Positions 2,363 through 54,821 of a DNA stretch of 64,000 bases are shown in pieces. The position numbers and the translations under genes were made by a program. Where the stretch lies: the NCBI RefSeq assembly GCF_900176425.1, contig NZ_FWXS01000009.1, positions 1 through 64,000 on the forward strand, in the 5' to 3' direction. Within the stretch, counting starts at the first letter, position 1, and each line of letters starts with the position of its first letter. Source of the DNA: Moheibacter sediminis (GTDB lineage Bacteria > Bacteroidota > Bacteroidia > Flavobacteriales > Weeksellaceae). The notes below the pieces were generated by a model. The model was not told the origin of the DNA. It worked only from the letters and a program-made list of their open reading frames with translations, and made no database searches.

Positions 2363-2372
2363 AATTTTAATT

Positions 2373-6565: not shown

Positions 6566-6729
6566 AAAGAAAGATAAAAATTGATTTTCAGTAGATTATA
6601 AAATATAGAATTAGAAAAAAGAAACAACCCTAAGATTGTTTCTTCTGATTTTATTTCTTTAAATCCTCTGAAAACGTTTTTTCCTTCATCTGGTGTTTCA
6701 AATGTGTTGATATTAGATCAACCCTCATT

Positions 6730-7022
6730 TTTATAACCTTAACGTCCCTTATTCAATTCGTAACGTCCGTTCTTGCTTCCCCAACATTCGTTTTCACATT
6801 CGCAACGTCCGTTATTGGTTCCGTAACCCCCGTTGTCATAACCTTAACGTCCCTTATTCAATTCGTAACGTCCGTTTTCGTAACTGTAATCTTCGTTTTT
6901 GCAACCGTAATTCCCGTTATCACGACTGTAACATCCGTTTTTGTTATGGCTACGTCCGTTATTTCATCCACAACATCCGTTGTCATAACCGTAACACTCG
7001 TTGCCGCTTCTGTACCCACGTT
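6730..7022. repeat. Tandem array of 14 x 21-bp degenerate direct repeats. Consensus nTnnnnnnCGTAACGTCCGTT; each unit contains the mini-palindrome AACGnnCGTT.
   Basis: Units were counted by hand (6730-6750, 6751-6771, ... 7003-7022). Units 2 and 7 are identical, and units 1 and 6 nearly so. The 3' 13 nt are conserved and the 5' 8 nt variable. Frame 1 is stop-free across the array (6649-7059) but has no ATG, GTG or TTG start. Confidence 0.9.
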
Positions 7023-10070: not shown

Positions 10071-11243
10071 TTACTTTATGTGTTCGATAAGGAAATGAAA
10101 ATCATTTTTCAATGCGGGAAGGCTTTTCCAATCAAGCAATTGCGCTTTAAATTGAAGGCTGTCTTTTCTGAAATTTAATTTTAAAATCGAGTTGTTTTGA
10201 TTAAATTGGTAATCGATTGCAAATTCGTTTTGGTGATAATCTTTCGCTATAATTTGTTTTTTATGAGCTTGAATCTCGTAATAAAAGTCACGCATTTCAT
10301 CATTGGTTTTCTGAAGAATTATGAAATTGTCTTTGTGAAAGAAAATTCTTTTGTAAGGAAAATCAGAAAGAGAAAGAGTATCATTCTTATAAATGGTTTC
10401 CGTAATTTCATAAGCACCCTGGAAGGAAGCTCTTTGATTTAATTCTTTTGAAATCACATATGGATAAAAGATTTGAACCAGAAAAATCCCAATCAGAAAA
10501 AGCTGAATCCATTGGTTGGCAAATGAATTTTTTACAAAGATAATTTCAGGATTTTTGAGTAATTCCGATTTTTCCGAAAAAAAAATATTTTTCAACGGTT
10601 TCAAATAAGGAGACAAAAGGAAAATATTTGTTGCTAAAAGAAATGCAGAAAATGATTTCACCGAAATATCGAAACTGAAATTAATGACCAGAATTTGAAT
10701 CAGAACAAAAACCGAAATTAACAATGCAATCAGTCTTGTTCTTCTGAAAAACAATAAGATTCCAGTCAAAACTTCCACAATTCCCGTGATGATACAATAA
10801 GTTCTGGAAAGTCCTGTGACGCTCCAAAACAAAATATCTTTGTCCAAATTTCCGAAATTGGAGTAGAGAATGTTTGGTTCGGGTGTGTAAAATTGCGTTC
10901 CCATCATTTTTTCGATTCCATATTTCAGCAAAATGAAAATCAAGTAAAATATAAGAATGCTTCTCGCCAATGAAATATATTTCTGATTTTTAATAAACAC
11001 AGAAATCAAAATTGAAATTAGAAAAATTAAAATCAATAATAGGTTGAATTCCAGCGAATCAGATGAAATTTCAATTCTTTCCGTTGGGTTTATTACAAAT
11101 AAATTTAGAAGAAATCCAATCGGTTTCTGAAAGACAAAATGCGAAAACCGGTACTGAAAATCATTTGATAGAGTGTTGAGCGGAATGAATATAATTCCTA
11201 AAAGAAAAAATGATGCAAAGATTTTTTCTGCTTGAAATTTCAT
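10071..11243 (-). CDS. Polytopic membrane protein (DoxX-like N-terminal region?) with a soluble C-terminal extension
   Basis: Multiple TM helices; weak DoxX-like pattern (TGIVEVLTGILLFF). Low specificity. Confidence 0.3.
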   Translation of the reverse strand: MKFQAEKIFASFFLLGIIFIPLNTLSNDFQYRFSHFVFQKPIGFLLNLFVINPTERIEISSDSLEFNLLLILIFLISILISVFIKNQKYISLARSILIFYLIFILLKYGIEKMMGTQFYTPEPNILYSNFGNLDKDILFWSVTGLSRTYCIITGIVEVLTGILLFFRRTRLIALLISVFVLIQILVINFSFDISVKSFSAFLLATNIFLLSPYLKPLKNIFFSEKSELLKNPEIIFVKNSFANQWIQLFLIGIFLVQIFYPYVISKELNQRASFQGAYEITETIYKNDTLSLSDFPYKRIFFHKDNFIILQKTNDEMRDFYYEIQAHKKQIIAKDYHQNEFAIDYQFNQNNSILKLNFRKDSLQFKAQLLDWKSLPALKNDFHFLIEHIK

Positions 11244-29232: not shown

Positions 29233-29380
29233 GGAAAACCCCTAAAACCTTCAAGTCAAATTGCATACGATTGACGATGCCTTTCGGCAGAAAACCGCAC
29301 AATGGCGCTGTACAGAAACGCTCAACAAGACTTGCTTGATATTTTTAATCTTTTTTAAAAGAACTTCTCATTTTAAATTC

Positions 29381-29422
29381 TTGACAAATATTTTCACTTA
29401 TCTACGCAATTATTTTGCGTGG
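29381..29422 (-). promoter_or_regulatory. Third copy of the promoter/operator element (TTGACAAA ... ACGCAATTATTTTGCGT), positioned to drive the tRNA-like ncRNA and possibly read through to SPFH-NTase-NTase-rtcB
   Basis: tcttgacaaatattttcacttatctacgcaattattttgcgtgg has the same architecture as the other two copies. Confidence 0.5.
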
Positions 29423-29479
29423 ATAAAAATTCTTTAAAATAATTTTAAATTAAAAAAAGAGCCGCCGAAACGGCCCCAT

Positions 29480-29965
29480 TCACACGGCTAAGTCGGCGCA
29501 AGATGAACTTGCGAACGCATAAGGTTTGGCTCTGAAGGTGTAGCCCATTCCCAAAATGTAACCCATCGCATCCTTCAAAGCGATATTGGATTTGAAATCA
29601 GAATCGGTATTGATGTCGGCGTGGACTTCCATTTGGATGTCGTATTTGTCCAAAATTTCATGAATTGCGTAAGCGATCTCTACGGATTTTGCGACTTCAT
29701 TCAACATCCGTTCTTTGATGCCTATTTTCTGGACAATTCTTTCTTTACGGATAAAAGCAAATGCTCCTTTTCCTTTTCTGATGACCACAATTGCGGTTGC
29801 ATAGTGAACTTCATTTCCATAAACATGGGAATCGGATCCCACACATACTTTCAATTCGTATCCGTTTTTTAATTCTCTTTGAATGGCTTCTTCCAATAAT
29901 TCTTTAAGCGGATGTGTAAATACAATTCCGCTTAAATTTCTCCAGATTTCATTTTGAGCTTTCAT
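29480..29965 (-). CDS. Small cytoplasmic protein, possibly RNase H-like (YkuK/DUF458-type fold). Assignment is tentative.
   Basis: KVCVGSDSHVYGNEVHYATAIVVIRKGKGAFAF resembles an RNase-H-like strand-Asp-strand start. No firm signature, so low confidence. Confidence 0.3.
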   Translation of the reverse strand: MKAQNEIWRNLSGIVFTHPLKELLEEAIQRELKNGYELKVCVGSDSHVYGNEVHYATAIVVIRKGKGAFAFIRKERIVQKIGIKERMLNEVAKSVEIAYAIHEILDKYDIQMEVHADINTDSDFKSNIALKDAMGYILGMGYTFRAKPYAFASSSCADLAV

Positions 29966-29978
29966 GGTAATTTTTGTT

Positions 29979-30239
29979 TTATGGTGACGATTTTTTGATA
30001 CTGTCTTTTTTTGCATCAGCAAATATTTTGTACAAATCGGATGATGTTTTCACATCACTGACAACTTTTGCTGCATTTTTTGTACTTGCATTGTTCATTT
30101 CCACATTGTCTGCGTACTTGATGTAAGCTGGACTTGCATTGTCGATTGATTTTATCGCTTTGCTTGTGTTTTTACAGCTTCGAGTAAACGAGATTAAAGT
30201 TGCAAATGCAATCAATACGATACTTAGTATATTTTTCAT
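29979..30239 (-). CDS. Small secreted/lipoprotein-like hypothetical protein (86 aa)
   Basis: MKNILSIVLIAFATLISFTRSCKN signal peptide. The track ORF 29979..30398 over-extends into the tRNA-Pro region. Confidence 0.3.
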   Translation of the reverse strand: MKNILSIVLIAFATLISFTRSCKNTSKAIKSIDNASPAYIKYADNVEMNNASTKNAAKVVSDVKTSSDLYKIFADAKKDSIKKSSP

Positions 30240-30249
30240 AATTCTAATT

Positions 30250-30321
30250 TTTAATTTGTCTGGGAAGCAGGATTCGAACCTGCGACCTCCCGCGTCCAAG
30301 GCGGGTAAACAACCACCGTTA
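30250..30321 (-). tRNA. tRNA-Pro (anticodon TGG)
   Basis: Acceptor CTGGGAA/TTCCCAG; anticodon stem CCCGC/GCGGG with loop CTTGGAC; T-arm GCAGGTTCGAATCCTGC. Confidence 0.75.
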
Positions 30322-30332
30322 TCTTCCCAGAA

Positions 30333-30403
30333 TTTATTTTGCGGTTCATACGAGAATCGAACTCGTGGCTCCCGAGAGACAGCCGGGTAGGTTGCCATTA
30401 CCT
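30333..30403 (-). tRNA. tRNA with anticodon GTC (Asp-like; unusual T at position 37)
   Basis: Acceptor GGTTCAT/ATGAACC; D-arm AGGT-AATGGCA-ACCT; anticodon loop CTGTCTC; T-arm ACGAG-TTCGATT-CTCGT. Confidence 0.55.
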
Positions 30404-30405
30404 CA

Positions 30406-30490
30406 ATGAACCTTTGGTGGGAATGAAAGGATTCGAACCTTTTCAGCTATTGCATTGGTTTTACAGACCAACTCAACTCTCCAGCTTTGA
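30406..30490 (-). tRNA. tRNA-Tyr (GTA), type II with long variable arm and encoded CCA
   Basis: Acceptor GGGAATG/CATTCCC plus ACCA; anticodon stem TTGGT/ACCAA with loop CTGTAAA; T-arm AAAGG-TTCGAAT-CCTTT. Confidence 0.8.
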
Positions 30491-30497
30491 CGCATTC

Positions 30498-30569
30498 CCA
30501 ATTTTGTACTCCGTAGGGGAGTCGAACCCCTGATTGCTGATAGAAAGTCAACCGTCTTTACCGCTTGAC
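30498..30569 (-). tRNA. tRNA-Glu (TTC)
   Basis: Acceptor GCTCCGT/ACGGAGT; anticodon stem GTTGA/TCAGC with loop CTTTCTA; T-arm AGGGG-TTCGACT-CCCCT. Confidence 0.75.
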
Positions 30570-30574
30570 CAACG

Positions 30575-30647
30575 GAGCAGTTGTGATACCGGCAAGGTTC
30601 GAACCTGCGACTTGAAAGTTAAAAGCTTCCAGCTCTACCAACTGAGC
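30575..30647 (-). tRNA. tRNA-Lys (TTT)
   Basis: D-arm TAGCTCAGTTGGTAGAGC; anticodon stem GGAAG/CTTTC with loop CTTTTAA; T-arm GCAGG-TTCGAAC-CTTGC. The acceptor stem has one A·G mismatch, so the boundary is approximate. Confidence 0.65.
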
Positions 30648-31425
30648 TACTATATCTAAATTTATTGCATAAAAAAAGCGTCTCTTTTTGGGAGACGCTC
30701 AGTTATCGTAAATGAAATATATCTATTTCACCTGATTCTGGTTTTCTCCCACACAAATGGATTTTCTCCATTACAATCAATTCCAAAGGGTTTTACCCAA
30801 CTCGGCTGATATGTTTTATGTTCTAGTGATAATCTCATCTTGTTATTTTTTAATCTTGATAAATTAATTTTTGTTTTCTACTTATGACAATTTGATTTGT
30901 CATTTTTGACGGTGCAAAGATTAAATGAGTTTTTGAATTATGCAAATAAAATTTTGAATTAAATTATTGAAAATCAATAATTTACATTAATTTTTAAACA
31001 ATAAAACTCCTGTCCGCCTGCTGCAGATTGTCTTGAATTTTGCAACTGTCTGTCTCACATTTGCTTGGTAACTCACGCTACGTTTTTATATTTTTTCAAA
31101 TTCACTTAAAAAATTTCTCATATTTTTTTCATTTAAAACAAAAAGCGCCCGATATATACAATCGGACGCTTCAGAATTCAACTTATTTTTAGATATTTTA
31201 CATCAAAATTTTATATAAACTGAGTACATAACGTCCGTTTTCGTTCCAGAATCCTTTCGGTTCTAAACGGTAATCACACTGACTTATCAGTGATTGCATG
31301 GCATTATGTATTCTAATTTTTGTCATTTTTTCTGATGCAAAGATGCGGGATTTAGTTTAATTTGGAACTAATTAGATTTCAATTTAGAATAAAAACAAAG
31401 ATTTCTGCTTCACTACACATTTTTA

Positions 31426-32487
31426 TTGCGGAAAAATTATTTCCTTATTTTTAATTCAAATTTAAACAAAATGGCCATCAACAAAAATGCATTGATTCGA
31501 TACAAAACGATTGACAAATGTCTGCAAAACCATTATCGGAAGTGGACTTTGGAAGATTTTATCGAAGCTTGTTCCGATGCGCTTTACGAATATGAAGGTC
31601 GTGATGTAAACGTAAGCAAACGAACAATTCAGCTTGACATTCAGATGATGCGCAGTGACAAATTGGGCTACAATGCGCCGATTGAAGTTTATGAAAAAAA
31701 GTTCTATCGATATGCGGACGAGACATTTTGCATCACCGACATTCCGCTCACAGAAAATGATATGAATGTGCTTTCAGAAACGGTTGAAATGCTTAAACAG
31801 TTCAAAGATTTTTCTTTATTTGATGAGTTAGGCGACATCATTCACCGGTTGGAAGATAAAATATATACCGAAAAAACACATCGGCAGCCCATCATTCATT
31901 TGGACAAAAATGAACAATTGAAAGGTTTGGAACATTTGGAAGTTTTGTACCAGGCGATTTTGAAAAAATGTGTTTTGAATATCCAGTATCAATCTTACAA
32001 AGCGCGTGCGGCTTCAAAGATAACCGTTCACCCGTTTTTGTTGAAAGAATATAACAACCGATGGTTTCTGGTGGGTAAGACAAATGCAAATTCCGAGGTA
32101 AAAACCTTTGCGCTGGACAGAATTCAAAATGTAGATTTTGATTTGAAATCAGAACATCTCAATGAAAATTTCAACGGAGATGAATATTACAAAAACACAA
32201 TAGGAGTTACCGTTTTGGACGAAAAATATGTAAAAGAAATTATTCTGAAAATTGATTCGAGCAATGCGCCGTATGTGCTGACCAAACCATTTCACCATTC
32301 GCAGGAAATTATGGAAAAACATGAAGATGGAAGCATTACTTTTAAGATTTGCGTCGGCATTAATTTTGAACTGGAAAGATTGGTTCTAGGATTTGGAGCG
32401 TCAATTGAAGTGCTTGCACCTCGCGAACTCAGAAAACGTGTGGCTAAAATTTTAAGGAATGCTTCGGGGATTTATGAAACTAATTAA
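31426..32487 (+). CDS. WYL-domain transcriptional regulator (HTH-WYL-WCX architecture, YafY/PafBC/BrxR-like)
   Basis: The probable start is the internal MAINKNALIRYKTIDKCL (HTH-like). HPFLLKEYNNRWFLVGK is the WYL-motif region. Length is about 340 aa. Confidence 0.65.
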   Translation: MRKNYFLIFNSNLNKMAINKNALIRYKTIDKCLQNHYRKWTLEDFIEACSDALYEYEGRDVNVSKRTIQLDIQMMRSDKLGYNAPIEVYEKKFYRYADETFCITDIPLTENDMNVLSETVEMLKQFKDFSLFDELGDIIHRLEDKIYTEKTHRQPIIHLDKNEQLKGLEHLEVLYQAILKKCVLNIQYQSYKARAASKITVHPFLLKEYNNRWFLVGKTNANSEVKTFALDRIQNVDFDLKSEHLNENFNGDEYYKNTIGVTVLDEKYVKEIILKIDSSNAPYVLTKPFHHSQEIMEKHEDGSITFKICVGINFELERLVLGFGASIEVLAPRELRKRVAKILRNASGIYETN

Positions 32488-32490
32488 AAC

Positions 32491-32538
32491 AAAAAAAGCA
32501 CCTCATTTCTGAAGTGCTTTCTGCGATCCGGACGGGAC
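32491..32538 (+). repeat. attL: a 48-bp direct repeat of the tRNA-Asp 3' end plus its terminator hairpin
   Basis: aaaaaaagcacctcatttctgaagtgctttctgcgatccggacgggac matches 45966-46013 at 47 of 48 positions. Confidence 0.85.
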
Positions 32539-32629
32539 TTTTGATTTTATTTTATATGACTAATATGCAGATATTTATGGTCTTAAATCTTAGTGATTAT
32601 ATCTATAAGTCCACCTTGTAGTAAAACCC

Positions 32630-44601: not shown

Positions 44602-45816
44602 TTACTTTTTATCCAACTTTTTACTCAAGTTACGGATATGTTCACTAACCTTTTTCTGAACCACCTTTCCATAATGCTCCTGCGTGATGGTGATTTTAGA
44701 ATGTCCAAGTAATTCTGACACAATCTCCATAGGCACATCATTATACAGTAATACTGTAGTAGCAAAGGTTTTCCTTGCAATATGATGAGTCAAATTTTTT
44801 TCAATCCCAACTATTCCTGCTATCTCTTTCAGATAAGAATTGAACTTAGAATTACTAGCTTTTGGTAACACACGTACATCATCATATTCTTGGTATTTCT
44901 CTATGATAGATAGAGCTTTAGGAAGAAGAGGAATTGAAATTTGCTTTTGAGTCTTTTTTCTCTGCATTTGAATCCATTGATTTCCATCAAACCCAGTTAC
45001 AATGTGTTTCTTCTCAAGATTGTACATTTCAGTAAATGCTAATCCTGTATAACAGCAGAAAACAAAGAAATCCCTGATTTGTTCAACTCTTGTGATAGGG
45101 AAATTGTGATTTTCAAGCCTTTCCAATTCCTCAGCAGTCAGATATACAACTTCTTTTTTAGGTCTTGCTAATCTGTGGAGTAGGAAAGGGTCTTTGTCTA
45201 AGAATCCCATAGATACAGCCATTTTGACTACTTTCTTGGTTCTTTGTAAACTTTTGAAAGTTGTACTTGCCTGAAACTTCTTCTCTGTCTTGAGGAAATA
45301 TTCAAACTCCTGAAGGAAGTTTTCATTCAAATCCTTTAGCAGGTAATCATTCTTTTTCAACTGTAATTTCAGGAACTCAGCAATATGGTTCTTGGTAAGG
45401 TTGTACCTGCTCCAACTTAATTGAGCATACTCAATTCCTATAAGTTTCTCCATTTTGTTGTTATGTATTTCAAATGCTTCTAACAAGGTCTTTTCAGCTT
45501 TTATGTTCTCTCCTTTGTACTTCAGGTAAATATCATTTACATCAAAGTTTAAAGAGTTCACTTGCAGATACAAAAAAGCCTGACTAATTTCATTCTTAAT
45601 CAGGCTTAACTGTGTATTGATATAATTGTTCTCATCATTGGGTGGATGAGCTTTCTGCTGTCCATTTTTCCAATGGTTAGGATTTACAAATAATCCAGTA
45701 GAAAATATCTTTCTCACCCCACTTAATGTAATTCTACATCTGATAGGGGCTTTGCCTTGTCTGTTAAGTTTGGTTCTATTTATTAAGAAAAGTATTTTTA
45801 AATCTATTGCATTCAT
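44602..45816 (-). CDS. int: Tyrosine-type site-specific integrase
   Basis: The C-terminal LTHHIARKTFATTVLL...LLGHSKITITQEHYGKV (R, HxxR, catalytic Y) is the phage-integrase catalytic-domain pattern. It is adjacent to attR and the tRNA. Confidence 0.85.
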   Translation of the reverse strand: MNAIDLKILFLINRTKLNRQGKAPIRCRITLSGVRKIFSTGLFVNPNHWKNGQQKAHPPNDENNYINTQLSLIKNEISQAFLYLQVNSLNFDVNDIYLKYKGENIKAEKTLLEAFEIHNNKMEKLIGIEYAQLSWSRYNLTKNHIAEFLKLQLKKNDYLLKDLNENFLQEFEYFLKTEKKFQASTTFKSLQRTKKVVKMAVSMGFLDKDPFLLHRLARPKKEVVYLTAEELERLENHNFPITRVEQIRDFFVFCCYTGLAFTEMYNLEKKHIVTGFDGNQWIQMQRKKTQKQISIPLLPKALSIIEKYQEYDDVRVLPKASNSKFNSYLKEIAGIVGIEKNLTHHIARKTFATTVLLYNDVPMEIVSELLGHSKITITQEHYGKVVQKKVSEHIRNLSKKLDKK

Positions 45817-45890: not shown

Positions 45891-45965
45891 AGAAATGGGA
45901 GGAAAAATAAGGAAGTATGATTTAAGAGCTAAATCTCTGTAACGCCTTTGTTATAGTATAAAAAC

Positions 45966-46013
45966 AAAAAAAGCACCTCATCTCTGAAGTGCTTTCTGCG
46001 ATCCGGACGGGAC
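45966..46013 (+). repeat. attR: a 48-bp direct repeat overlapping the 3' end of the intact tRNA-Asp
   Basis: See attL. Confidence 0.85.
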
Positions 46014-46072
46014 TCGAACCCGCGACCACCTGCGTGACAGGCAGGTATTCTAACCAGCTGAACTACCGGATC
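45999..46072 (-). tRNA. tRNA-Asp (GTC), the integration target
   Basis: GATCCGGTAGTTCAGCTGGTTAGAATACCTGCCTGTCACGCAGGTGGTCGCGGGTTCGAGTCCCGTCCGGATCG closely resembles canonical bacterial tRNA-Asp. It is followed by the hairpin GCACTTCAGAGATGAGGTGC plus a T-run. Confidence 0.85.
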
Positions 46073-46611: not shown

Positions 46612-46740
46612 TCATTTCTAAATTTATTTGGGCGTCCGGGCGGGCTGCTTCGGGCTTCGCATCGCTTCGGCCTTCCGTTTCACTCCACGCCGCTCCCCAT
46701 GGTCGCGCCACTTCGTCTCCCTGACGCATATCCGTTATTC
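46612..46740. repeat. GC-rich about 130-bp intergenic repeat element (family copy E2)
   Basis: Shares ATAACGGATnTGCG ... CCATGG ... CAGCCCG ... ACGCCCAAA blocks with 52428-52570 and (in reverse complement) 54700-54821. About 60% GC in an AT-rich context. Confidence 0.6.
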
Positions 46741-46803
46741 ATTAAACAAAGTAAGTAAAAAAAATATTTACGAAAACCTTTCGTTTTCTCTTTCTTTATA
46801 AAA

Positions 46804-47781
46804 TCAATGTACATTAAACAAAATGATGATTAGATAAATGGTCATCACAATCAGAATGCAAAACATATTAATAATAAATAAACAAAAACCTTTTAGCCTA
46901 GAAATCCATTTATTTTCACCGTAAACTTTACTGTGTGCCCTGAAAAAGTAGAAGAATGTGTAAAAACCACAAATAAGTACAAACATCATTGTTGTAAGAT
47001 CAACAAAATCATTATCTCCAAGCAATCCTAAAAGAAATCCGAATATTGCTACAATTGTATTGGAAATTAACAAAAAAGAAAAATAATGAAGCGTAAATAT
47101 CCCGTGATCAAAGTAATACCATCTCTTTTTACCATGAAACAGCCAGAGCCAAAACGCAAAAATTGGTAGGTAAATGAACAATACTTTGGAAAAATTCCGC
47201 GAAATCATATCATATGCTTTCTCCTGAAATTCTTTGTCGGTACCATTCTTTTTTAATTCAACAATCTTTTTTATCATCTTGTATTCCAACCTATTCAGCC
47301 TTTCGCCCTCTGGCTTAACCCTCTGTAATGAATCAAGCTGTGCAACCGATTTGACATCTTTAAAATCTTTCAAACCGTATGTAACACCCGAATTATTGAT
47401 TTCTCTTGCTAATTCAGATTCATTTTCAGATGTTTCAATAAATTCATTAGGGGGCTGATTTTCGAAAAAAGAAATAACTCCCGGAACGAAAACAGCAATA
47501 AAAAGTAGAAATATATATAGCTTAACCGGCGCAACATAACTTGCACGCTTGCCTTTTAAATATTCATTGGTCAATTTTCCCGGCTTGAACAACAACGTTT
47601 TTACCGTTTTCCAAAAGCTGCCGTCATAGTGTACAAAATCTTCCAGAAAATGTCTAAACAGATAATGAAACGAATGTCTCGTTTCCGTATTCTCCTGTCC
47701 GCAATATGAACAAAACCTGTCATGAACTTCGTTTCCGCAGTTCAGACAGGTTTTATCTTCTCTTAATTTATGGTGTCCCAC
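46804..47781 (-). CDS. Membrane protein with an N-terminal zinc-ribbon (DUF3667-like)
   Basis: CLNCGNEV...CSYCGQEN double CxxC, then several TM helices. Confidence 0.5.
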   Translation of the reverse strand: MGHHKLREDKTCLNCGNEVHDRFCSYCGQENTETRHSFHYLFRHFLEDFVHYDGSFWKTVKTLLFKPGKLTNEYLKGKRASYVAPVKLYIFLLFIAVFVPGVISFFENQPPNEFIETSENESELAREINNSGVTYGLKDFKDVKSVAQLDSLQRVKPEGERLNRLEYKMIKKIVELKKNGTDKEFQEKAYDMISRNFSKVLFIYLPIFAFWLWLFHGKKRWYYFDHGIFTLHYFSFLLISNTIVAIFGFLLGLLGDNDFVDLTTMMFVLICGFYTFFYFFRAHSKVYGENKWISRLKGFCLFIINMFCILIVMTIYLIIILFNVH

Positions 47782-47787
47782 CTGAAA

Positions 47788-49890
47788 TTATTTCAAAGTT
47801 TTTACACCCATGTTCCACAAAGTAAATGCGTATTTGTCAGCCGCTTCGTTGATGATCACTTCAGTCGAACGTCCTGCGCCGTGTCCTGCCTTGGTTTCAA
47901 TTCTTATCAAAACAGGGTTGTCACATTTTTGTTTTGCCTGCAATTCAGAAGCGAATTTATAACTGTGCGCCGGAACAACTCTATCATCATGGTCACCCGT
48001 TGTAACCATCGTTGCCGGGTAACAAATGCCTTCTTTTACATTATGAACCGGTGAGTATGCTTTCAAATAATCAAACATTTCTTTATTATCATTCGCCGTT
48101 CCGTAATCATACGCCCAACCTGCACCAGCAGTGAAAGTGTGGTAACGTAACATGTCCAAAACACCTACCGCAGGCAAAGCAACTTTTACCAGATCCGGAC
48201 GCATTGTCATTGTCGCTCCCACCAAAAGTCCTCCGTTAGAACCTCCTGAAAGAGCTAAATAATCAGTTGATGTGTATTTTTCTTTTTTCAAAAATTCTGC
48301 TGCTGCAATGAAATCGTTGAATACATTTAATTTGTTCAATTGTCTTCCACCATCGTGCCATTTTTTTCCATATTCACCGCCACCGCGTAAGTTGGCAACA
48401 GCGTAAATTCCTCCATTTTCCATCCAAATAGCATTGGCAACGCTGAATGAAGGTGTCAAGCTGATGTTGAACCCACCGTACCCATAGAGTATTGTAGGGT
48501 TTTTCCCATCCAATTTGATTCCTTTTTTGTACGAAATCATCATCGGAACTTTCGTTCCGTCCGCAGAAGTATAAAATACTTGTTTGGATTCGTAATTTTC
48601 CGGTATGAATTTAATTGCAGGTTTTTTGTATAAGTTTGATTTTCCGCTTTCTACATCGAAATCATAAGTAGTTCCCGGCATCACATAATTACTGAAAGAA
48701 TAATAAATTTTCTTTTCTTCTTTTTTTCCTGAGAATCCGCCTGCACTTCCATTTCCTGGCAATTTGATATCTCTTACCTTTTTTCCGTCATGTTTGTATT
48801 GCTGTACAACATCTAATGCATCGATCATATAATGTGCAAAAATGTAACCGCCGGCAGTTGAAATGTTCAACACATCTTCTGTTTCAGGAATCACATCCAC
48901 CCAATTTTCAGGCTTCGGATTTTTCACATTTACTTTAACCAAACGGTTATTCGGCGCATTGAAATTTGTCAACAAATAAAGCTCATCTCCAACATTATCT
49001 ACTAGACTTGTAGAAGTATCAAAATTATCTAAAATAGTAATTATCGGCGCACCTTTTTTGGTCAAATCTTGGATGTACAATTCATTTCCACTTGTCGAGA
49101 CCGCTGTTGAAATCACTAAAAATTTCTGGTCTTCCGTCACGCCGCCACTGATATATCTTCTTTGTAATTTTTCACCACCAAAAACCAATTCATCATTTTT
49201 CTGAGAAGATTTTAATTTGTGGTAAAAGAATTTATGCTGATCCGTCATCGTTGAAAGTTCGCTTCCTTCGGGTTTGTCGTAACTTGAATAATAAAATCCT
49301 TCATTCCCTTTCCATGAAACACCACTGAATTTTACATTCACCAAAGTATCTTCAATAATTTTATTTTGAATTGCATCTAAAACGATAATTTTCGTCCAGT
49401 CAGAACCACCTTCAGAAATCTGGTAAGCGCAAAGTGAACCGTCTTTAGAAAAGCTCATTCCGGCCAATGAAGTAGAACCGTCTTTTGAGAATTTATTTGG
49501 ATCCAAGAAAACTTCTTCTTTCCCGCCTTCCGCTTGTCTGTAAATCACATAATGCTGCTGAAGTCCGTTATTTTTGTAGAAATAAGTAAATTTTCCTTCT
49601 TTAAATGGGGCAGAAATTTTCTCATAATTCCAGATTTCTGTCAGTTGTTTTTTCAATTGATCACGAAGTGGAATTTGATCCAAATAACCAAAAGTCACTT
49701 TATTTTCGGCATCCACCCAAGACTTGGTTTCCGCAGACAAATCGTCTTCGAGCCAGCGGTATGGATCTTCGATTTTCGCACCGAAGTATTCGTCGGTGTG
49801 TTTGATTTTTTTGGTTTCGGGATATTTTAATTGAGCATTGAGGTTCATAGCAATCGCTGCGGTTAATAAAGTGAAAAGATGTTTTTTCAT
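47788..49890 (-). CDS. S9A prolyl oligopeptidase (prolyl endopeptidase)
   Basis: Signal peptide; catalytic GGSNGGLLVG (Ser); DHDDRVVPAHS (Asp/His region). 700 aa beta-propeller plus hydrolase. Confidence 0.85.
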   Translation of the reverse strand: MKKHLFTLLTAAIAMNLNAQLKYPETKKIKHTDEYFGAKIEDPYRWLEDDLSAETKSWVDAENKVTFGYLDQIPLRDQLKKQLTEIWNYEKISAPFKEGKFTYFYKNNGLQQHYVIYRQAEGGKEEVFLDPNKFSKDGSTSLAGMSFSKDGSLCAYQISEGGSDWTKIIVLDAIQNKIIEDTLVNVKFSGVSWKGNEGFYYSSYDKPEGSELSTMTDQHKFFYHKLKSSQKNDELVFGGEKLQRRYISGGVTEDQKFLVISTAVSTSGNELYIQDLTKKGAPIITILDNFDTSTSLVDNVGDELYLLTNFNAPNNRLVKVNVKNPKPENWVDVIPETEDVLNISTAGGYIFAHYMIDALDVVQQYKHDGKKVRDIKLPGNGSAGGFSGKKEEKKIYYSFSNYVMPGTTYDFDVESGKSNLYKKPAIKFIPENYESKQVFYTSADGTKVPMMISYKKGIKLDGKNPTILYGYGGFNISLTPSFSVANAIWMENGGIYAVANLRGGGEYGKKWHDGGRQLNKLNVFNDFIAAAEFLKKEKYTSTDYLALSGGSNGGLLVGATMTMRPDLVKVALPAVGVLDMLRYHTFTAGAGWAYDYGTANDNKEMFDYLKAYSPVHNVKEGICYPATMVTTGDHDDRVVPAHSYKFASELQAKQKCDNPVLIRIETKAGHGAGRSTEVIINEAADKYAFTLWNMGVKTLK

Positions 49891-49908
49891 ATTTTGTGTG
49901 TATTTATT

Positions 49909-51231
49909 TTATTGTTGAAATGAATAATAGCGTGCGCCGAGTAAATTCGGATTTTCATTTTCTATTTTTTCCAATTTGAAACCATGAATCTTTCCTGCCG
50001 AATGCTTCAGTTTTTTTCGATGCAAATTTTCATAAGTTTCATAATCGATTGATTCTCTTTTTTCTAATTCTGCTTTCAAATTTAATTTTTCTATGACAGA
50101 TTTCCAACCGCTTTCGATTGTACCTTCAAAAACTTTTGATTTGGAACCGCTTCCATAAGATAAAAATCCGACTTTTTTTCCTTCCAGATTTTCATCAGAT
50201 AAAGTCAAAGCAGAAAGCAAAGCAGTGAAAATAGAAGCCGTGTACATGTTTCCGATTTCAGCAGAAGCCCATTGTGTCGGATTGATTTTTTCATGGATTA
50301 AATTTGCGTAATCATCTGATTTTGAAATAATTTTTTGATTTTCATTTGAATTGTCTAATTCATTTTCCAAAGCAAAAATATCTGTAAACATCCGTTTTCC
50401 TTGAAAGGCGTAAGGCAAATGAAACGCTAAATATTTCCAATTTTCGTATAATTTATCTGAATTTAATTGCTTTTTCAAGTCAAAATAAGCGTCGCGCAAA
50501 CGGTCTTTGTAACATTCGTTTGAATATTGCCCATCGAAAATCGGTTCATCTGTAAAAATTTCAATCTGATCTGAACCTGAATTCACAGCGGAAACCACCG
50601 GTTCGTCTTCGCGGTATCTTCTTGGTTTGAAAAAATCGAAAACACTTTCAGTAGAAATTCCCCAATTATTTTCGAAAGAAATCAATTCCGGATTAGACGA
50701 AATCAACATCGCAACTGCACCTGCCCCTTGCGTATATTCGCCTGAAGAATCCAATGCATATTTTGCATAATCAGCAGAAATTACAATTGCTTTTTTGTTG
50801 GGATTTACCCTTACAAAATCCAAACAATTGTGCAAAGCATCCACACCGCCTACACATGCAAAAGTCATGTCCAAAACATCAATATGTCGGAATGAATTTT
50901 CTCCAAAATTTGTTTTTAAAACTTCCTGAACCAATTGTACAGCATAAGTTGCTGTCGGTTTGGCCGCATCCAAAGCACTTTCTGTACCGAGATAAATTCT
51001 CGAAATGTCTTTGGGATTTAAATTAAAATATTTGAATAATTTAAACAAAACATTAGCGGATAATGTGGCTGTATCTTCGTGTGCATCGAGCACTGCCATT
51101 TTTTTCAATCCTAAACCAAATTCAAGTTTTTCGGGTTCTATATTTCGTTTGATTGCGAGGTCTTTAACAGATAAGTAAATTTTAGGGAGATAAATTGCCG
51201 CAGCTTCGATTCCAACTTTCATTATTTTCAA
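49909..51231 (-). CDS. mvaS: Hydroxymethylglutaryl-CoA synthase (mevalonate pathway)
   Basis: VGIEAAAIYLPKIYLSVKDLA...; GEYTQGAGAVAMLISSNPELI and GFLSYGSGSKSKVFEG align with MvaS conserved blocks. Confidence 0.8.
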   Translation of the reverse strand: MKIMKVGIEAAAIYLPKIYLSVKDLAIKRNIEPEKLEFGLGLKKMAVLDAHEDTATLSANVLFKLFKYFNLNPKDISRIYLGTESALDAAKPTATYAVQLVQEVLKTNFGENSFRHIDVLDMTFACVGGVDALHNCLDFVRVNPNKKAIVISADYAKYALDSSGEYTQGAGAVAMLISSNPELISFENNWGISTESVFDFFKPRRYREDEPVVSAVNSGSDQIEIFTDEPIFDGQYSNECYKDRLRDAYFDLKKQLNSDKLYENWKYLAFHLPYAFQGKRMFTDIFALENELDNSNENQKIISKSDDYANLIHEKINPTQWASAEIGNMYTASIFTALLSALTLSDENLEGKKVGFLSYGSGSKSKVFEGTIESGWKSVIEKLNLKAELEKRESIDYETYENLHRKKLKHSAGKIHGFKLEKIENENPNLLGARYYSFQQ

Positions 51232-51260
51232 CTTTCAATAAAATTCAAATTTATAAATTA

Positions 51261-52403
51261 ATGCCTTACTTTTGGGTTATGAATTGGGATAAAATTGCCG
51301 GGCAGCACGAAATTAAACAAAAATTAAAAGAATCGGTTGCGGAAGGACGTATCAGTCATGCACAGCTTTTCGTAGGAAAAGAAGGTTCGGGCGCGTTGGC
51401 GATGGCAATTGCTTATGCAGGAGAAATTTTATCACAGGAAAAAGGAGAAACAGCGCTTACAAAAGTAAATTCTCTGCAACACCCCGATTTGCATTTTGCT
51501 TATCCGGTAGCTTCGACCGATTCCGTAAAAGACAAACCGACAAGTGCCCAGTTTGTAAGAGAATGGAGAGAATTCTTTTTGGAAAATCCTTACGGGAATA
51601 TATTTGACTGGCTTCAGTTTTTGGGGATTGAAAAGAAACAAGGAAACATCAACGTACATGAAGCGCAGGAAATCGTAAAAACGCTTTCACTCAACAGTTA
51701 CGAGGGTGGATACAAAATTATGATCATCTGGCTGCCGGAATTGATGAACAATGCTGCTGCCAATAAACTCCTGAAAATCATCGAAGAACCACCGCAGAAA
51801 ACTTTGTTTTTGTTGGTTTCGGAGCGTGAAGATTTATTGTTGCCGACAATTACTTCGCGTTGTCAGTTGGTTAAATTGGATCGTTTGTCAGATCATGAAA
51901 TTGCAGAATATTTAAAACAAAATAAAGATTTGTCAGAAATTGAAGCTTTGCGTTTGGCGATTTCTGCGAATGGGAGTCTGCATGAAGCTTTGTCGAATTT
52001 AGGAGCCGGAAATTCAGAGTTTGAAGCTTATTTTGTGCAGTGGGTGCGAAATGCTTTCATGGCGGCGAAGAATCCAAATGTTTTGAAAAATCTGGTAGAA
52101 TGGGCAAATGAACTCAGCGGTTGGTCGCGCGAGCAGCAGAAACAGTTTCTGAGTTATTGTTCCGAGGTTTTCCGTCAGGCATTACTTCAGAATTATCAGG
52201 CTGAGAATTTGGTTTTTATGCGATTGGAAAATGACGGATTTAATTGGGGAAAGTTTTCGCCATACATTCATGGTGCCAATATCGAAGATATTCTGAACGA
52301 AATCAATGAGTCTTCTTACCACATAGAGAGAAATGCAAATGCCAAAATCGTTTTGCTGGATTTGTCAATCAAATTGACGAGGTATTTGCATAAGAAAGGT
52401 TAA
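51261..52403 (+). CDS. holB: DNA polymerase III delta-prime subunit
   Basis: NWDKIAGQHEIKQKLKESVAEGRISHAQLFVGKEGSGA (Walker-A-like); clamp-loader AAA+ pattern. Start chosen at an internal Met to avoid overlap with mvaS. Confidence 0.75.
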   Translation: MPYFWVMNWDKIAGQHEIKQKLKESVAEGRISHAQLFVGKEGSGALAMAIAYAGEILSQEKGETALTKVNSLQHPDLHFAYPVASTDSVKDKPTSAQFVREWREFFLENPYGNIFDWLQFLGIEKKQGNINVHEAQEIVKTLSLNSYEGGYKIMIIWLPELMNNAAANKLLKIIEEPPQKTLFLLVSEREDLLLPTITSRCQLVKLDRLSDHEIAEYLKQNKDLSEIEALRLAISANGSLHEALSNLGAGNSEFEAYFVQWVRNAFMAAKNPNVLKNLVEWANELSGWSREQQKQFLSYCSEVFRQALLQNYQAENLVFMRLENDGFNWGKFSPYIHGANIEDILNEINESSYHIERNANAKIVLLDLSIKLTRYLHKKG

Positions 52404-52427
52404 ATCAATTTGAAAATTCAAATTATT

Positions 52428-52570
52428 TCGGAATTGCACCCGGGATGAAGGCATTTCCTTCGGTAGTTCGCTTCACTCGTGTGTCTGAGTTCTTTTTGTG
52501 AATTCGCCACAGCGAAGTTTACAAAAAAGAGAGTGCCGCCAGCCCGAAAAAACGCCCAAACCTAATGAAG
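52428..52570. repeat. GC-rich intergenic repeat element (family copy E3)
   Basis: cccgggatgaaggcatttcc...gagagtgccgccagcccgaaaaaacgcccaaacc; homologous to 54700-54821 (reverse complement) and 46612-46740. Confidence 0.6.
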
Positions 52571-52625
52571 CGGTTCGACGAAGTCAAATAAAATGTCAAA
52601 TATCTATAAATAAAAAAACCGCCCT

Positions 52626-52652
52626 TTTACAAGGACGGTTTCTATCATTTAA
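52626..52652 (-). terminator. Rho-independent terminator of rpsA
   Basis: Minus-strand hairpin ACCGTCCTTGTAAAAGGGCGGT followed by TTTTTTTATTT. Confidence 0.6.
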
Positions 52653-52664
52653 GGAAATTTGGGA

Positions 52665-54476
52665 TTAGTTTCCTTCTCCTTCCATTCTCTTTTTCAATTC
52701 TGCTAATCCGTCAAGGTCACCCAAAGTCGAAGTTTCGATGTTTTGGTTTTCCATTGCTTTTTTCGCTTGTTTTTCTTCCTCTTCACGGAAAGTTGCCGTG
52801 TGAGAAACTACTACGCGACGGAATTCTTTGTTGAACTCAATCACTACGAATTCTAATTCGTCACCTTTCTTCACACGTGAACCGTCTTCTTTCTCCAAAG
52901 TTCTTGCAGGAGCGAAAGCTTCTACGTCAGCATCTTCGAATTGGATAGTTGCACCTTTGTCAAATGCGTCAACAGCTTTACCTGTGTGGCGTGAACCTAC
53001 AGCGTACTTGCTTTCGTATTTGTCCCAAGGGTTTTCTGTCAATTGTTTGTGGCCTAAGCTCAAACGACGTGCTTCTACGTCTAATTCAAGAACTACTACG
53101 TCTAACACGTCATCCACATTTGTGAATTCAGATGGGTGTTTGATTTTTTTAGTCCAAGAAAGATCAGAAATGTAGATCAATCCATCAACACCTTCTTCTA
53201 ATTCTACAAACACACCGAAGTTAGTAAAGTTTCTTACTTTTCCTTTGTGCTCAGAACCGATTGGGTATTTAGTTGTGATGTCAGTCCAAGGATCAGCAGC
53301 CAATTGCTTGATACCTAAAGACATTTTGCGTTCGTCTCTGTCCAAAGTCAAGATTTGAGCTTCAACCTCATCACCAACTTTTACGAAATCTTGTGCAGAA
53401 CGCAAGTGCGTTGACCAAGACATCTCAGAAACGTGTACCAAACCTTCAACTCCCGGAGCCACTTCGATGAATGCGCCGTAATCAGCCAATACAACAACTT
53501 TTCCTTTTACTGTATCACCAACTTGTAAGTTTTGGTCTAAAGCTTCCCAAGGGTGTTTTTCTAATTGTTTGATACCCAATTGAATTCTTGTTTTGTCTTC
53601 GTCAAAATCAAGGATAACAACGTTGATTTTCTGACCATCTTCCAAGATTTCTGATGGATGGTTGATTCTTGACCAAGAAAGGTCTGTAATGTGGATCAAA
53701 CCATCAACACCTCCTAAGTCAACAAACACACCGTAAGAAGTAATGTTTTTCACTTCTCCTTCCAATACTTGTCCTTTCTCTAATTGAGCAACGATTTCTT
53801 TTTTCTGTTCTTCGATATCTGCTTCGATCAAAGCTTTGTGTGATACAACAACGTTTTTGAATTCAGGGTTGATTTTAACCACTTTGAATTCCATTGTTTT
53901 ACCAACATATTGTTCGTAATCACGGATTGGTTTCACGTCGATTTGTGAACCTGGCAAGAACGCTTCGATTCCGAATACGTCCACAATCATACCACCTTTC
54001 GTACGAGCTTTGATGTAACCGTTTACAATTTCTTGTGTATCGTGAGCTTTGTTCACAGCATCCCAAGCGTTCAATGAACGTGCTTTTCTGTGTGACAATA
54101 CCAACTGACCGTTTTTGTCTTCACGTGTGTCAACCATTACTTCAACCTCATCGCCTACAGCTAAATTTGGGTTGTAACGGAATTCGTTCAATGAAATAAC
54201 ACCCTCAGATTTGAAGTTGATGTCAACAATCGCCTCTTTGTCTGTCAAACGGATAACTTTTCCTTTGAATACAGCGTTTTCGTCAAGGCTGTCCAAAGTT
54301 TCGTCATACATTTTTTCCAACTGCGCTTTTTCTTTGCGATCCTCAGCATTCAGTCCGCTTTCAAATGATTCCCAGTCGAATTCTTCTAATGAAATGTTTG
54401 AATTTGATTCGTCAGAATTTGTACTTAAGTCCAATACTTGTTCTTCTAACTCTTCGTGATTTGTCTCTTTTGACAT
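52665..54476 (-). CDS. rpsA: 30S ribosomal protein S1
   Basis: Six S1-domain repeats (GxV.GxVxxI..FGAFV pattern); 603 aa. Confidence 0.9.
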   Translation of the reverse strand: MSKETNHEELEEQVLDLSTNSDESNSNISLEEFDWESFESGLNAEDRKEKAQLEKMYDETLDSLDENAVFKGKVIRLTDKEAIVDINFKSEGVISLNEFRYNPNLAVGDEVEVMVDTREDKNGQLVLSHRKARSLNAWDAVNKAHDTQEIVNGYIKARTKGGMIVDVFGIEAFLPGSQIDVKPIRDYEQYVGKTMEFKVVKINPEFKNVVVSHKALIEADIEEQKKEIVAQLEKGQVLEGEVKNITSYGVFVDLGGVDGLIHITDLSWSRINHPSEILEDGQKINVVILDFDEDKTRIQLGIKQLEKHPWEALDQNLQVGDTVKGKVVVLADYGAFIEVAPGVEGLVHVSEMSWSTHLRSAQDFVKVGDEVEAQILTLDRDERKMSLGIKQLAADPWTDITTKYPIGSEHKGKVRNFTNFGVFVELEEGVDGLIYISDLSWTKKIKHPSEFTNVDDVLDVVVLELDVEARRLSLGHKQLTENPWDKYESKYAVGSRHTGKAVDAFDKGATIQFEDADVEAFAPARTLEKEDGSRVKKGDELEFVVIEFNKEFRRVVVSHTATFREEEEKQAKKAMENQNIETSTLGDLDGLAELKKRMEGEGN

Positions 54477-54699
54477 AATTTAAAATTTGTATCTCAAAAA
54501 TAATCATCGAAAGCAGCGCGGAAATGGTTTTTGAGAGTGGTTAAACTTGTGAAATTCAATACTTTGTTTCTAAATCCGCCAAAGTGGGTGCAAATTTATA
54601 AATTTTTCTTGAATTAATTATATAAATGATTGGAAATCTGAATAGTTAAAATTTTTCAAAAATGTTTTGGGCAGCTTCCGATGGCAGAAAATTCAACTA

Positions 54700-54821
54700 A
54701 CATAGAAAATCCCGGAAGCCATCGGAACCGGGCTGTCGGCACTCGCTCTCCGTCCGCCATGGCAGACGGAGGAGCTCAAACAGATGCCTTCATCCCTTCC
54801 GCAAATCCGTTATAATTTTCA
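54700..54821. repeat. GC-rich intergenic repeat element (family copy E4, opposite orientation)
   Basis: Its reverse complement reads ataacggatttgcggaagggatgaaggcatc...ccatgg...gagtgccgacagcccgg. Confidence 0.6.

Follow-up and report, generated by a model that had tools for sequence, protein, structure and literature searches.

The first 64,000 nucleotides of contig NZ_FWXS01000009.1 of Moheibacter sediminis (hereafter the window) carry GC-rich repeats in the intergenic regions around trxA and rpsA, and the question raised by this locus is what kind of element these repeats are. An initial annotation of the window had described three of them as a non-coding dispersed family, present in both orientations, that could be related to MITEs (miniature inverted-repeat transposable elements) or repetitive extragenic palindromes (REPs), or could be a family of small structured RNAs. 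The dispersed, non-coding character was borne out, as we found relatives far outside the window, on 16 contigs from metagenomes and 34 from viruses, in three Bacteroidota genomes and on two Bacteroides plasmids. The window contains four such elements, here called E1, E2, E3 and F28, and all four belong to one superfamily that includes the Flavo-1 motif of Rfam (RF01705). This motif was described by Weinberg et al. (2010; PMC2864571) as a multi-copy candidate small RNA (sRNA) of Bacteroidota without assigned function, a membership that the initial annotation overlooked. By its behavior, our results indicate, the Flavo-1 family is closer to a promiscuous DNA repeat than to a collection of RNA genes. 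We give an even chance to the more specific reading of a structured DNA repeat that is non-autonomous, works by copy-and-paste or gene conversion, and is transcribed only passively.

Four elements of one superfamily that includes Flavo-1

The full unit consists, in order, of the 5' half of a closing stem (P0), a first hairpin (arm A, the Rfam motif), a second hairpin (arm B), the 3' half of P0 and a C(C)CAAA tail. The Rfam model covers arm A only and leaves the 5' GCGUG unpaired, so that P0, arm B and the tail are added by the unit described here. Its ends are sharp at P0, with a GCGUG start and a CACGCCC end in paralogues that have unrelated flanks (L134, L135 and L142). Arm A measures about 60 to 105 nt, and arm B varies from absent or a 4-nt linker, through a hairpin, either the CCC-GNA-GGG mini-hairpin or one with a 10-bp stem, up to tandem hairpins that exceed 240 nt (L012), giving units of 80-330 nt. 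Unconstrained minimum free energy (MFE) folding recovered a three-way junction in most copies. Arm B of L012 (after 6011-6075, minus strand) and of L145 (after 10743-10807) contains 6-7 tandem 30-nt hairpin units, CCCTCCTTCACTGACGCTRCGGAGGGTAAA, which form a second repeat family nested inside the element.

Two forms of arm A were distinguished. E2 and E3 differ from classical Flavo-1 in that they exchange its GNA/GNA loop and short P3 for AA/GN, GGCAU/GUGCC and a UUGUUUGA/GA module that resembles a kink-turn (K-turn). The consensus of this variant, GCG...GGGAUGAAGGCAU(U)UGUYUGAGC followed by a variable hairpin and GCGAGUGCCGNCAGCCCG, was found phylum-wide. A four-way alignment nevertheless showed the basal signature ...UGCG..A-GGG-A-U.-...-AGCCCG in all the window copies, arranged as GGG-A-(UA/UU/UG)-GA-rich loop ... 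(UA/AA/CA)-G-CCC with a covarying P2. The same pattern, GCGU(G/U)AGGGAU(A/U)G.AGC...GCG.A(A/U)AGCCCGAC with long variable inserts, is present in the Weinberg seed alignment, and the window copies share with Flavo-1 their intergenic position, their multiplicity and their occurrence in Bacteroidota.

A scan against Rfam, which the initial annotation had proposed, identified F28 as Flavo-1 and left the other three elements unmatched. The hit at 28708-28786(-) scored 48.5 bits against a gathering cut-off of 42 and was the only relevant match in the window at curated thresholds; E1, E2 and E3 matched no Rfam family even at E<=10, and 18 variant copies from elsewhere had no Flavo-1 match. This cut-off reflects a narrow model, because an original seed member, that of plasmid p5482, now scores 24.5 bits with the current Rfam model; the cut-off recovered five of the 20 viral loci tested and no microvirus copies. 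We built two covariance models, R1 from variant copies only (including E3 and leaving out E2 and all classical copies) and R2 from full-length classical copies (including F28 and leaving out E3); their E-values are rough, as the calibration was shortened. R1 detected E2 at 34.3 bits (E=7.7e-7) and F28 at 28.0 bits (E=3.9e-5), and gave 87.2 bits for E3, which was in its training set. R2 matched E1 at exactly 46627-46727(-) with 21.0 bits (E=0.012), the second-best match in the window, and E3 from end to end (54666-54802) with 13.8 bits (E=0.46), the third-best, in both cases at the ends predicted beforehand, while its 64.2 bits for F28 again concern a training sequence. Outside its training set, R2 gave 69.9 bits for the seed member on plasmid p5482, 66.2 bits for that on pBF9343, 57-69 bits for three GenBank microviruses and 24-43 bits for eight variant copies. 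Altogether, the four window elements are one superfamily with Flavo-1, in which E2 and E3 represent a widespread variant unseen by Rfam.

E3 (54665-54802, minus strand) is an intact variant-type element. Its P0 pairs GCGG (54802-54799) with CUGC (54674-54671), and arm A (54796-54730) is built from P1 (GGG/CCC), P2 (UG/CA), P3 (GGCAU/GUGCC), a UGUUUGA bulge that has tandem G.A pairs, and an apical hairpin of 9 bp; arm B, UUCCGAUGGC...GCCAUCGGAA, and a CCAAAA tail (54670-54665) follow. The MFE structure is a three-way junction of -60.2 kcal/mol (z=-3.67). The distance to rpsA, which is downstream on the same strand, is 189 nt, and a GNAT gene is divergent from the element. It had been placed at 54700-54821, which was too short, since the true end at 54665 adds the second hairpin, the 3' half of P0 and the CCCAAA tail.

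F28 (28672-28781, minus strand) is an intact classical Flavo-1 element, detected by RF01705 as well as by R1 and R2. Its P0 pairs GCGUGA with UCACGC, its arm A is the Rfam motif, CCGCaCCGCA...UGCGGcGCGG forms its arm B, and the tail is CAAAA; the MFE structure consists of P0 and the two arms (z=-2.76). A weaker relative had been suspected at 28681-28745 in the RtcB leader. That segment is indeed a family member, being the middle of the full element, but it is not in the RtcB leader: F28 ends 12 nt upstream of an SPFH/Band-7 open reading frame (ORF; 27503-28660) on the same strand, inside an RtcB/RlaP RNA-repair cluster.

The other two elements have diverged further. E2 (52436-52560, plus strand), recognized by its exact core blocks and by R1, is of the variant type and in partial decay. 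It has a degenerate P0 (GCACC vs AACGC, 2/5 pairs), a 26-nt insertion in arm A after GGCAUU, no arm B and the tail CGCCCAAA, with a fold z-score of -2.42. The gene for DNA polymerase III delta' is on the same strand, and its stop lies 33 nt before the start of E2. Between E2 and rpsA, at 52610-52640, we read a canonical bidirectional intrinsic terminator, to which the weak, terminator-like Rfam matches map and which is not a family member. A terminator role for the element itself was rejected: no U-tract follows P0, and E2 is not itself a terminator because this separate one lies downstream. E1 (46627-46727, minus strand), recognized by the full-length model R2, is a degenerate classical-type element in which GCGUC (46727-46723) pairs with GACGC (46636-46632), P1 is GGG/CCC, arm B has shrunk to the linker GCCCG, and the tail is CCAAA (46631-46627); it folds no better than shuffled sequence (z=+0.31). 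It is located 73 nt past the stop of a DUF3667 gene and 119 nt upstream of trxA, all on the same strand. E1 is overlapped by a 70-aa ORF that one public assembly annotates as a gene; the ORF has no family match and is not conserved in relatives, and this spurious gene should be dropped from the annotation.

The intergenic position claimed for E1, E2 and E3 was confirmed, and the ordered blocks that they had been said to share exist pairwise. GGGATGAAGGCAT is exact at 52442-52454(+) in E2 and 54784-54796(-) in E3, and AGTGCCGNCAGCCCG at 52532-52546(+) and 54729-54743(-) in the same two elements; two exact 13-mer copies within 64 kb far exceed chance. ATAACGGATWTGCG is exact at 46725-46738(-) in E1 and 54800-54813(-) in E3, and E1 and E2 have a 3' ACGCCCAAA in common. 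No block, however, is common to all three, and the overlap of E1 with the others is limited to this 3' sequence (with E2) and to a 5' extension (with E3). The extension, AUAACGGAUAU, occupies 46728-46738(-) beside E1 and recurs at 54803-54813 beside E3, with weaker forms in E2 and F28; it is genome-specific and unconserved in other taxa. CCATGG had been counted among the shared blocks, but its copies in E1 and E3 sit in non-homologous apical sequence, and the likeness is most likely a coincidence. Similarly, the GC content of all three exceeds that of the window (0.35), as claimed, with values of 0.68 for E1 and 0.56 for E3; the figure of about 60% does not fit E2 (0.50).

Covariation of the unit and of the variant module

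The classical alignment (A4) comprised 32 distinct full-length copies, sampled by arm-A pattern only. P0 was paired in 100% of cells, with the caveat that its 3' strand had been located by complementarity within 45 nt, and four of the five P0 pairs covaried (GCGUG/CACGC, GCGUU/AACGC, GCGUC/GACGC, GCGAG/CUCGC, GGCUU/AAGCC, GCAUA/UAUGC and GUGUU/AACAC). The P2 pair was AU in 17 copies and UA in 15, and the base of arm B covaried as well. The covariation score was 0.354, compared with 0.094 for shuffles, and none of 500 shuffles reached the observed value; the true structure paired 96% of cells, compared with 29-49% in slid controls. At all 34 viral loci the P0 partner was found directly before CCCAAA, for which we estimate a chance expectation of about 2%.

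For the variant form, an alignment of 18 arm A sequences (A3) supported a 5' bulge (UUGUUU), tandem G.A/A.G pairs and a helix (G-C, C-G, U-A, a C, U-A) leading into the variable hairpin. Covariation was 0.279 vs 0.110 for shuffles; pair 31-68 was UA in 14 copies and CG in four, pair 33-67 occurred as four pair types, and neither was unpaired in any copy. An alternative pairing, in which P3 is extended by UUUGUUU/AAAGCGA with three G.U pairs, was rejected, as its covariation was lower (0.224) and three sequences were unpaired at each of two pairs. The layout of the module resembles a K-turn, with a canonical stem (GGCAU/GUGCC), a 5'-strand bulge, the invariant tandem G.A/A.G and a second helix whose first pairs covary. 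The resemblance is structural only: the bulge is oversized and sequence-conserved (6 nt, UUGUUU) instead of 3 nt. We know of no L7Ae-type partner for this module.

Two further structural candidates were rejected. A tRNA-like or RNase P substrate, which would require a stem followed by CCA, is not supported, since the CCAAA tail occurs in about one quarter of the copies and there is no consistent discriminator plus CCA. Classical copies have no pseudoknot linking the tail to the UUUG bulge.

Distribution and orientation of copies

The four copies in 64 kb of the window are paralleled by 128 Rfam matches in the 2.8 Mb of Flavobacterium psychrophilum, which also supplied 96 of the 239 seed sequences and in which spacing is roughly random, with a median of 20 kb. 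Six copies of this genome (NC_009613: 570785, 1039046, 1244341, 1590815, 1726586 and 2504159, in the 2010 seed alignment) are 100% identical including short flanks, and these are probably carried inside a larger repeat or insertion sequence. Searching a genome collection with the pattern TGCNNNNGGGATGAAGGCAT gave three real matches among the 119 stretches listed, in Flammeovirgaceae (L012), a Bacteroidetes metagenome-assembled genome (L014) and Cyclobacteriaceae (L080); the pattern was too loose, and the other matches were due to chance. The two-block variant pattern found 16 real loci in metagenome contigs and no match in viral contigs, and an exact-protein look-up with the product of rpsA also returned none. 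The family is thus no local duplication, as the same variant stands in unrelated contexts across Bacteroidota. Within one metagenome, paralogues (L134, L138, L140 and L142) share their apical hairpin and arm B, and orthologous loci of other samples (L142 compared with L136 and L141) differ in both, through compensatory changes and indels. This combination looks like concerted evolution or recent copying.

Conservation at one site was followed with trxA. Ten contigs encode a TrxA identical to that of the window, and all ten keep a conserved promoter-proximal block upstream of the gene. Directly upstream of this block lies E1 itself in two contigs (L001 and L008, the latter a strain variant scoring 25.5 bits with R2), a classical copy scoring 57-68 bits in three (L005, L007 and L009) and a CGUGAUG-type form in L002/L003, L006 and L010. 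The three classical copies have the same flanks as E1, GCGUCAGGGA...AGCCCGCCCGGACGCCC, and flanks GCGTCAGGGA...AGCCCGCCCGGACGCCC are common to E1 and the classical elements at the orthologous site; by this comparison, E1 occupies an old site and is a resident copy that has diverged. In our reading, trxA has its Bacteroidota-type -7 boxes downstream of E1, which therefore falls outside the trxA 5' untranslated region (UTR).

We then considered orientation relative to transcription. Among 23 copies examined, both neighbors were co-oriented with the element at L014, L134, E1 and F28, and the element was antisense to both at the L136/L141/L142 locus and at L143; many copies abutted a stop codon, in either orientation. 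Copies stand sense-upstream of dnaK (L131, L132 and L134), a CsbD-like gene (L140), rpsA and the SPFH gene. Reading of the fetched loci revealed no promoter at a fixed distance upstream of copies, and an independent sRNA gene was rejected, as Bacteroidota -7/-33 boxes were not found at a fixed upstream distance. These observations agree with the transcription data of Guerin et al. (2021), in which matches were sense or antisense to transcribed regions and many were untranscribed. In the array of that study, flavo-1_0001 lies inside the mrcA-atoD transcript with its own strand at background, and the structured 5' UTRs of ftsY and alaS have the element on the opposite strand. Between the element and the dnaK start in L131, L132 and L134 (two lineages), a TGGCAT-N5-TTG sequence was noted by eye that resembles a sigma-54 -24/-12 promoter.

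Orientation relative to replication was assessed with the coordinates and strands of 86 F. psychrophilum and 33 Flavobacterium johnsoniae copies from the seed alignment, with origins assumed or scanned. No replichore bias was found in either species: 47 of 86 copies fitted a simple origin/terminus split in F. psychrophilum, where the best split over all origins reached 51/86 (permutation p=0.59), and 19 of 33 fitted in F. johnsoniae. GC skew, used as a proxy for replication direction in the fetched loci, gave 12 vs 6, which is not significant and is confounded by gene orientation. Orientation follows neither transcription nor replication.

The family is not confined to chromosomes. All 34 viral contigs retrieved with the classical two-block pattern had the full architecture, and many were Microviridae (identified by capsid F protein, DNA pilot protein and HUH replication initiator, Rep). 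In every microvirus examined, the element lay in the main non-coding region adjoining the HUH Rep gene. In one clade (L150; 26 genomes, Rep 78-100% identical), about 23 members had a single copy, which is on the gene strand and directly upstream of Rep; one form has P0 GCGUU/AACGC and arm B CCCC-UUUA-GGGG, and the other has P0 GCGUC/GACGC and linker GCCCG, as in the flanks of E1. OM869667 likewise has the element on its gene strand. At least three other clades have it on the opposite strand; examples are L168, with the element upstream of Rep, and L152, Microvirus mar49 and MG945248, with the element just downstream of that gene. Two otherwise intact phage genomes (L189 and L197) have internal deletions of the element that spare both P0 halves. 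Upstream of the element in L150 (1780-1880) and related microviruses there are many mini-hairpins of the GCGNAGC type (GCGTAGC, GCGAAGC, GTCATC-TTG-GATGAC), and this region may be the phage origin region.

Double-stranded DNA (dsDNA) phages of the Mu-like and HK97-like types also carry the element. A 9.2-kb Mu-like contig (L163) with MuA-like and MuB-like proteins and a repressor has copies at 443-540(+), 6250-6367(-) and 9039-9138(-), two of the three being inverted, at contig ends. On the conjugative plasmids pBF9343 and p5482 the element is antisense to both neighbors, and in pBF9343 it lies upstream of an ArdC-like single-stranded DNA (ssDNA)-binding gene. BLASTN of E3 and F28 against plasmids gave no match, the conserved blocks being too short.

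A proposed structured repeat and its rivals

The reading that we favor is that new copies would arise by a copy-and-paste step acting on one folded strand of a unit in which P0 closes around the conserved bulged hairpin (arm A) and the variable second hairpin (arm B) and which ends in CCCAAA. Existing copies would be homogenized by gene conversion, and any replicon with permissive intergenic DNA, whether chromosome, plasmid, dsDNA phage or microvirus, would be a place for copies to settle, where resident copies would be transcribed passively within UTRs, in either orientation. The strand asymmetry of the fold would follow from the proposed DNA-level intermediate, in which one strand is folded. 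Family membership, architecture, distribution and the lack of an orientation rule are direct results of the analysis; the mobility mechanism and the absence of a host-level function are what we infer.

Several results weigh against this reading. No mobilizing enzyme was found, and a scan of 10 window ORFs gave no Y1 transposase. No clean pair of empty and filled sites emerged, and L004 alone, with no element upstream of trxA, was too diverged to align. The initial annotation had pointed to target-site duplications and terminal inverted repeats as features to look for; there was no duplication at the copies with unrelated flanks (L134, L135 and L142), and the sole inverted repeat is the 5-bp P0. 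The element is kept beside the trxA promoter in nine of the ten relatives and occurs upstream of dnaK in at least two lineages. Compensatory changes were also seen at resident copies: arm B changed between CCUCGUUGUG/CACAACGAGG and CCCGUUGCG/CGCAACGGGG from one orthologous copy to another, and the apical stems of the L150 clade changed in a compensatory manner around a GNA triloop (AUUCGC-GAA-GCGAAU, AUCGGC-GAA-GCCGAU and AUGCCC-GUA-GGGCAU). Such changes in orthologous copies suggest selection on structure at the resident site, and gene conversion could also be the source of the same pattern. Finally, the unpaired nucleotides GAUAGNAG, GNAUAGCCCGAC, UUGUUUGAGC and GCGAGUGCC are invariant across Bacteroidota orders. 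Ordinary REPs and MITEs are not conserved to this extent, and the invariant loops therefore point to a conserved trans-acting partner; together with the compensatory changes, they imply such a partner and speak against a purely selfish element.

These same loops, invariant across the phylum, are what a structured RNA would show. According to this explanation, which we consider unlikely, the sense three-way junction with its GA-rich loops, and with the K-turn-like motif in the variant, would be bound by a conserved protein and would act in cis (on UTR stability, processing or translation) or, as in the original Flavo-1 annotation, as an sRNA in trans. The covariation that supports the tandem G.A/A.G between two helices and the 5' bulge is consistent with it, as are the copies that stand sense-upstream of dnaK, the CsbD-like gene, rpsA and the SPFH gene and, in the L150 clade, immediately upstream of Rep. 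Furthermore, the sense strand folded better than the antisense strand in 21/21 copies of the variant arm A (mean difference 4.9 kcal/mol) and had more G.U pairs (70/529 vs 43/467), but this asymmetry rests largely on the same invariant G.U pairs and is close to a single observation. The terminal loops showed no enrichment of GNRA or UUCG; GNA triloops such as GCGAAGC were common instead. Against an RNA, too, orientation to transcription is unconserved in hosts, plasmids and microviruses, and in the antisense microvirus arrangement the sense RNA should not arise; there is neither a promoter at a fixed distance nor a terminator, and E1 is outside the trxA 5' UTR.

A strand-asymmetric structure whose orientation is independent of transcription would fit a folded strand of DNA. 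We hypothesized that the element might be a ssDNA signal, read as a folded strand by host or phage replication machinery, for complementary-strand priming, as a single-strand-initiation site or as a substrate of HUH Rep or Y1 enzymes, with the chromosomal copies as targets or relics; we regard this explanation as improbable. It would account for the presence of the element in ssDNA phages and conjugative plasmids, for its Rep-adjacent position in every microvirus examined, for its retention, with compensatory changes, in about 23 of the 26 members of one clade, and for the pBF9343 copy just upstream of the ArdC-like gene. The frequent GNA triloops of the apical loops are of the GCGAAGC type, and such triloops are unusually stable in DNA. 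On the other hand, orientation relative to the packaged (+) strand differs between microvirus clades, and the minus strand is never free; in two phage genomes the element has lost internal sequence; there is no signal in local GC skew; and the lack of replichore bias in hosts argues against a lagging-strand-template mechanism such as IS200/IS605-type transposition. The broader proposal of a shared ssDNA signal of Bacteroidota replicons, recognized by primase, RNA polymerase, PriA or HUH Rep, strikes us as equally doubtful. If it were true, microviruses and conjugative plasmids would carry the element for conversion or recombination of the incoming single strand, and the copies in chromosomes would be sites of the host itself, or landing pads for microviruses that have no integrase.

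The high copy number, the roughly random spacing and the lack of an orientation rule would also suit an orientation-independent dsDNA or cruciform site bound by a nucleoid, topoisomerase or recombination protein, in the manner of bacterial interspersed mosaic elements (BIMEs), which bind gyrase and IHF. This seems to us very improbable, as lengths of about 60-105 nt for arm A and 0 to more than 240 nt for arm B are hard to fit to a fixed site, and G.U-type asymmetry and unpaired conserved loops are unexpected for a symmetric cruciform. Chance similarity or local duplication confined to the trxA-rpsA region has a practically negligible likelihood: three of the four copies do lie within 8 kb, but the fourth is 18 kb away, and the variant recurs with its invariant 13- and 15-nt blocks in unrelated contexts in Flammeovirgaceae, Cyclobacteriaceae, other Bacteroidota and 16 metagenome contigs.

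The preferred reading of a structured DNA repeat can be compared with known systems. A literature search for reports of REPs, REP-associated tyrosine transposases (RAYTs) or MITEs in Flavobacteria returned nothing specific. The REP, BIME and REPIN-RAYT systems of Proteobacteria resemble Flavo-1 in their hundreds of intergenic copies, often just past stop codons, in their hairpins and occurrence in both orientations, in the absence of target-site duplication, in passive co-transcription and in within-genome similarity. However, they are 20-40-nt palindromes, compared with units of 80-330 nt and a three-way junction here; the present elements have no GTAG tag and no inverted-dimer (REPIN) layout, no RAYT was identified among the 10 window ORFs scanned, CGTC is base-paired where present, and the core is conserved across a phylum instead of a genus. 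The CGTC-tagged REPs with a CCA tail that Di Nocera et al. (2013; PMC3733652) reported in Bacteroidetes (Gramella forsetii) and Spirochaetes share a 5' CGTC-like tag (cf. GCGTC/GCGTG), a 3' unpaired CCA-type tail and the lack of a dedicated transposase, as well as the same unusual pair of taxa as Flavo-1. By description they are single hairpins with 8-9-bp stems, 4-5-nt loops and an unpaired tag, whereas CGTC is here part of P0.

Other comparisons were similarly partial. MITE-like repeats (pneumococcal BOX, Neisseria Correia and enterobacterial repetitive intergenic consensus elements) are likewise modular, with a variable middle module and UTR transcription, but the present family has no terminal inverted repeats above 5 bp, no target-site duplication and no cognate insertion sequence. 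Both readings of the initial annotation are still live. Strict MITE and strict REP features are lacking. With ssDNA origins and initiation signals (the complementary-strand origins of G4 and phiX174, the Ff intergenic region and ssi/Frpo of conjugative plasmids) the element shares the multi-hairpin form and the location, which is the main non-coding region by the Rep gene in microviruses and beside an ArdC-like gene on a conjugative plasmid. They differ in that the Flavo-1 element has no fixed orientation, is dispensable in some phage genomes, has hundreds of chromosomal copies and shows no sequence similarity to known origins. The lagging-strand orientation rule of IS200/IS605-type elements does not hold in F. 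psychrophilum or F. johnsoniae.

Other features of the window were noted in passing. F28 belongs to an RNA-repair-type cluster on the minus strand (24183-32487) with RtcB, two RlaP nucleotidyltransferases, the SPFH/Band-7 gene, an RNaseH-like protein (PF04308) and five tRNA genes (Pro, Asp, Tyr, Glu and Lys), followed by a divergent WYL/WCX regulator. A 40-67-nt repeat, TTGACAAAGATTTGTGATTAACTGCGCAATTATTTTGCGT, occurs there four times (25572, 27421, 29381 and 31392), each time close to the boundary of a gene or between genes, and is a candidate operator/promoter set of the WYL regulator. Direct repeats of 57 nt at 32483-32539 and 45958-46014 (96% identical) include the 3' end of tRNA-Asp and are about 13.5 kb apart, with a tyrosine integrase (44602-45816, minus strand) at one end and tRNA-Asp at 45998-46072(-). 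The interval looks like an island integrated into tRNA-Asp, and in the relative L004 an integrase directly follows trxA and tRNA-Asp. Three to four 300-nt repeats at 4-5000 (86-90% identical, spaced by 1348 and 1620 nt) carry, by eye, an LYDYGARNYD-type motif, which suggests an array of Rhs/YD-like C-terminal cassettes. A run of 21-nt-period repeats at 6720-7013, with seven overlapping 105-nt copies (61-73% identical), is probably a repetitive coding segment.

Few orphan entries of Rfam are as abundant as Flavo-1, of which a flavobacterial genome can have more than 100 copies and to which no function has been assigned since 2010. The new results are the architecture of the entire unit, the variant subfamily, the occurrence on phages and plasmids and two orientation tests with a negative outcome. 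The annotated motif is one arm of a larger covarying unit with a closing stem, a second arm and a tail, and copy numbers have been underestimated, as at least one phylum-wide variant, that of E2 and E3, is invisible to Rfam. Carriage by Microviridae next to Rep, by other phages and by conjugative plasmids is an added point on the distribution. Altogether, these results shift the family from a candidate sRNA towards a structured genomic repeat with a presumed trans-acting partner.

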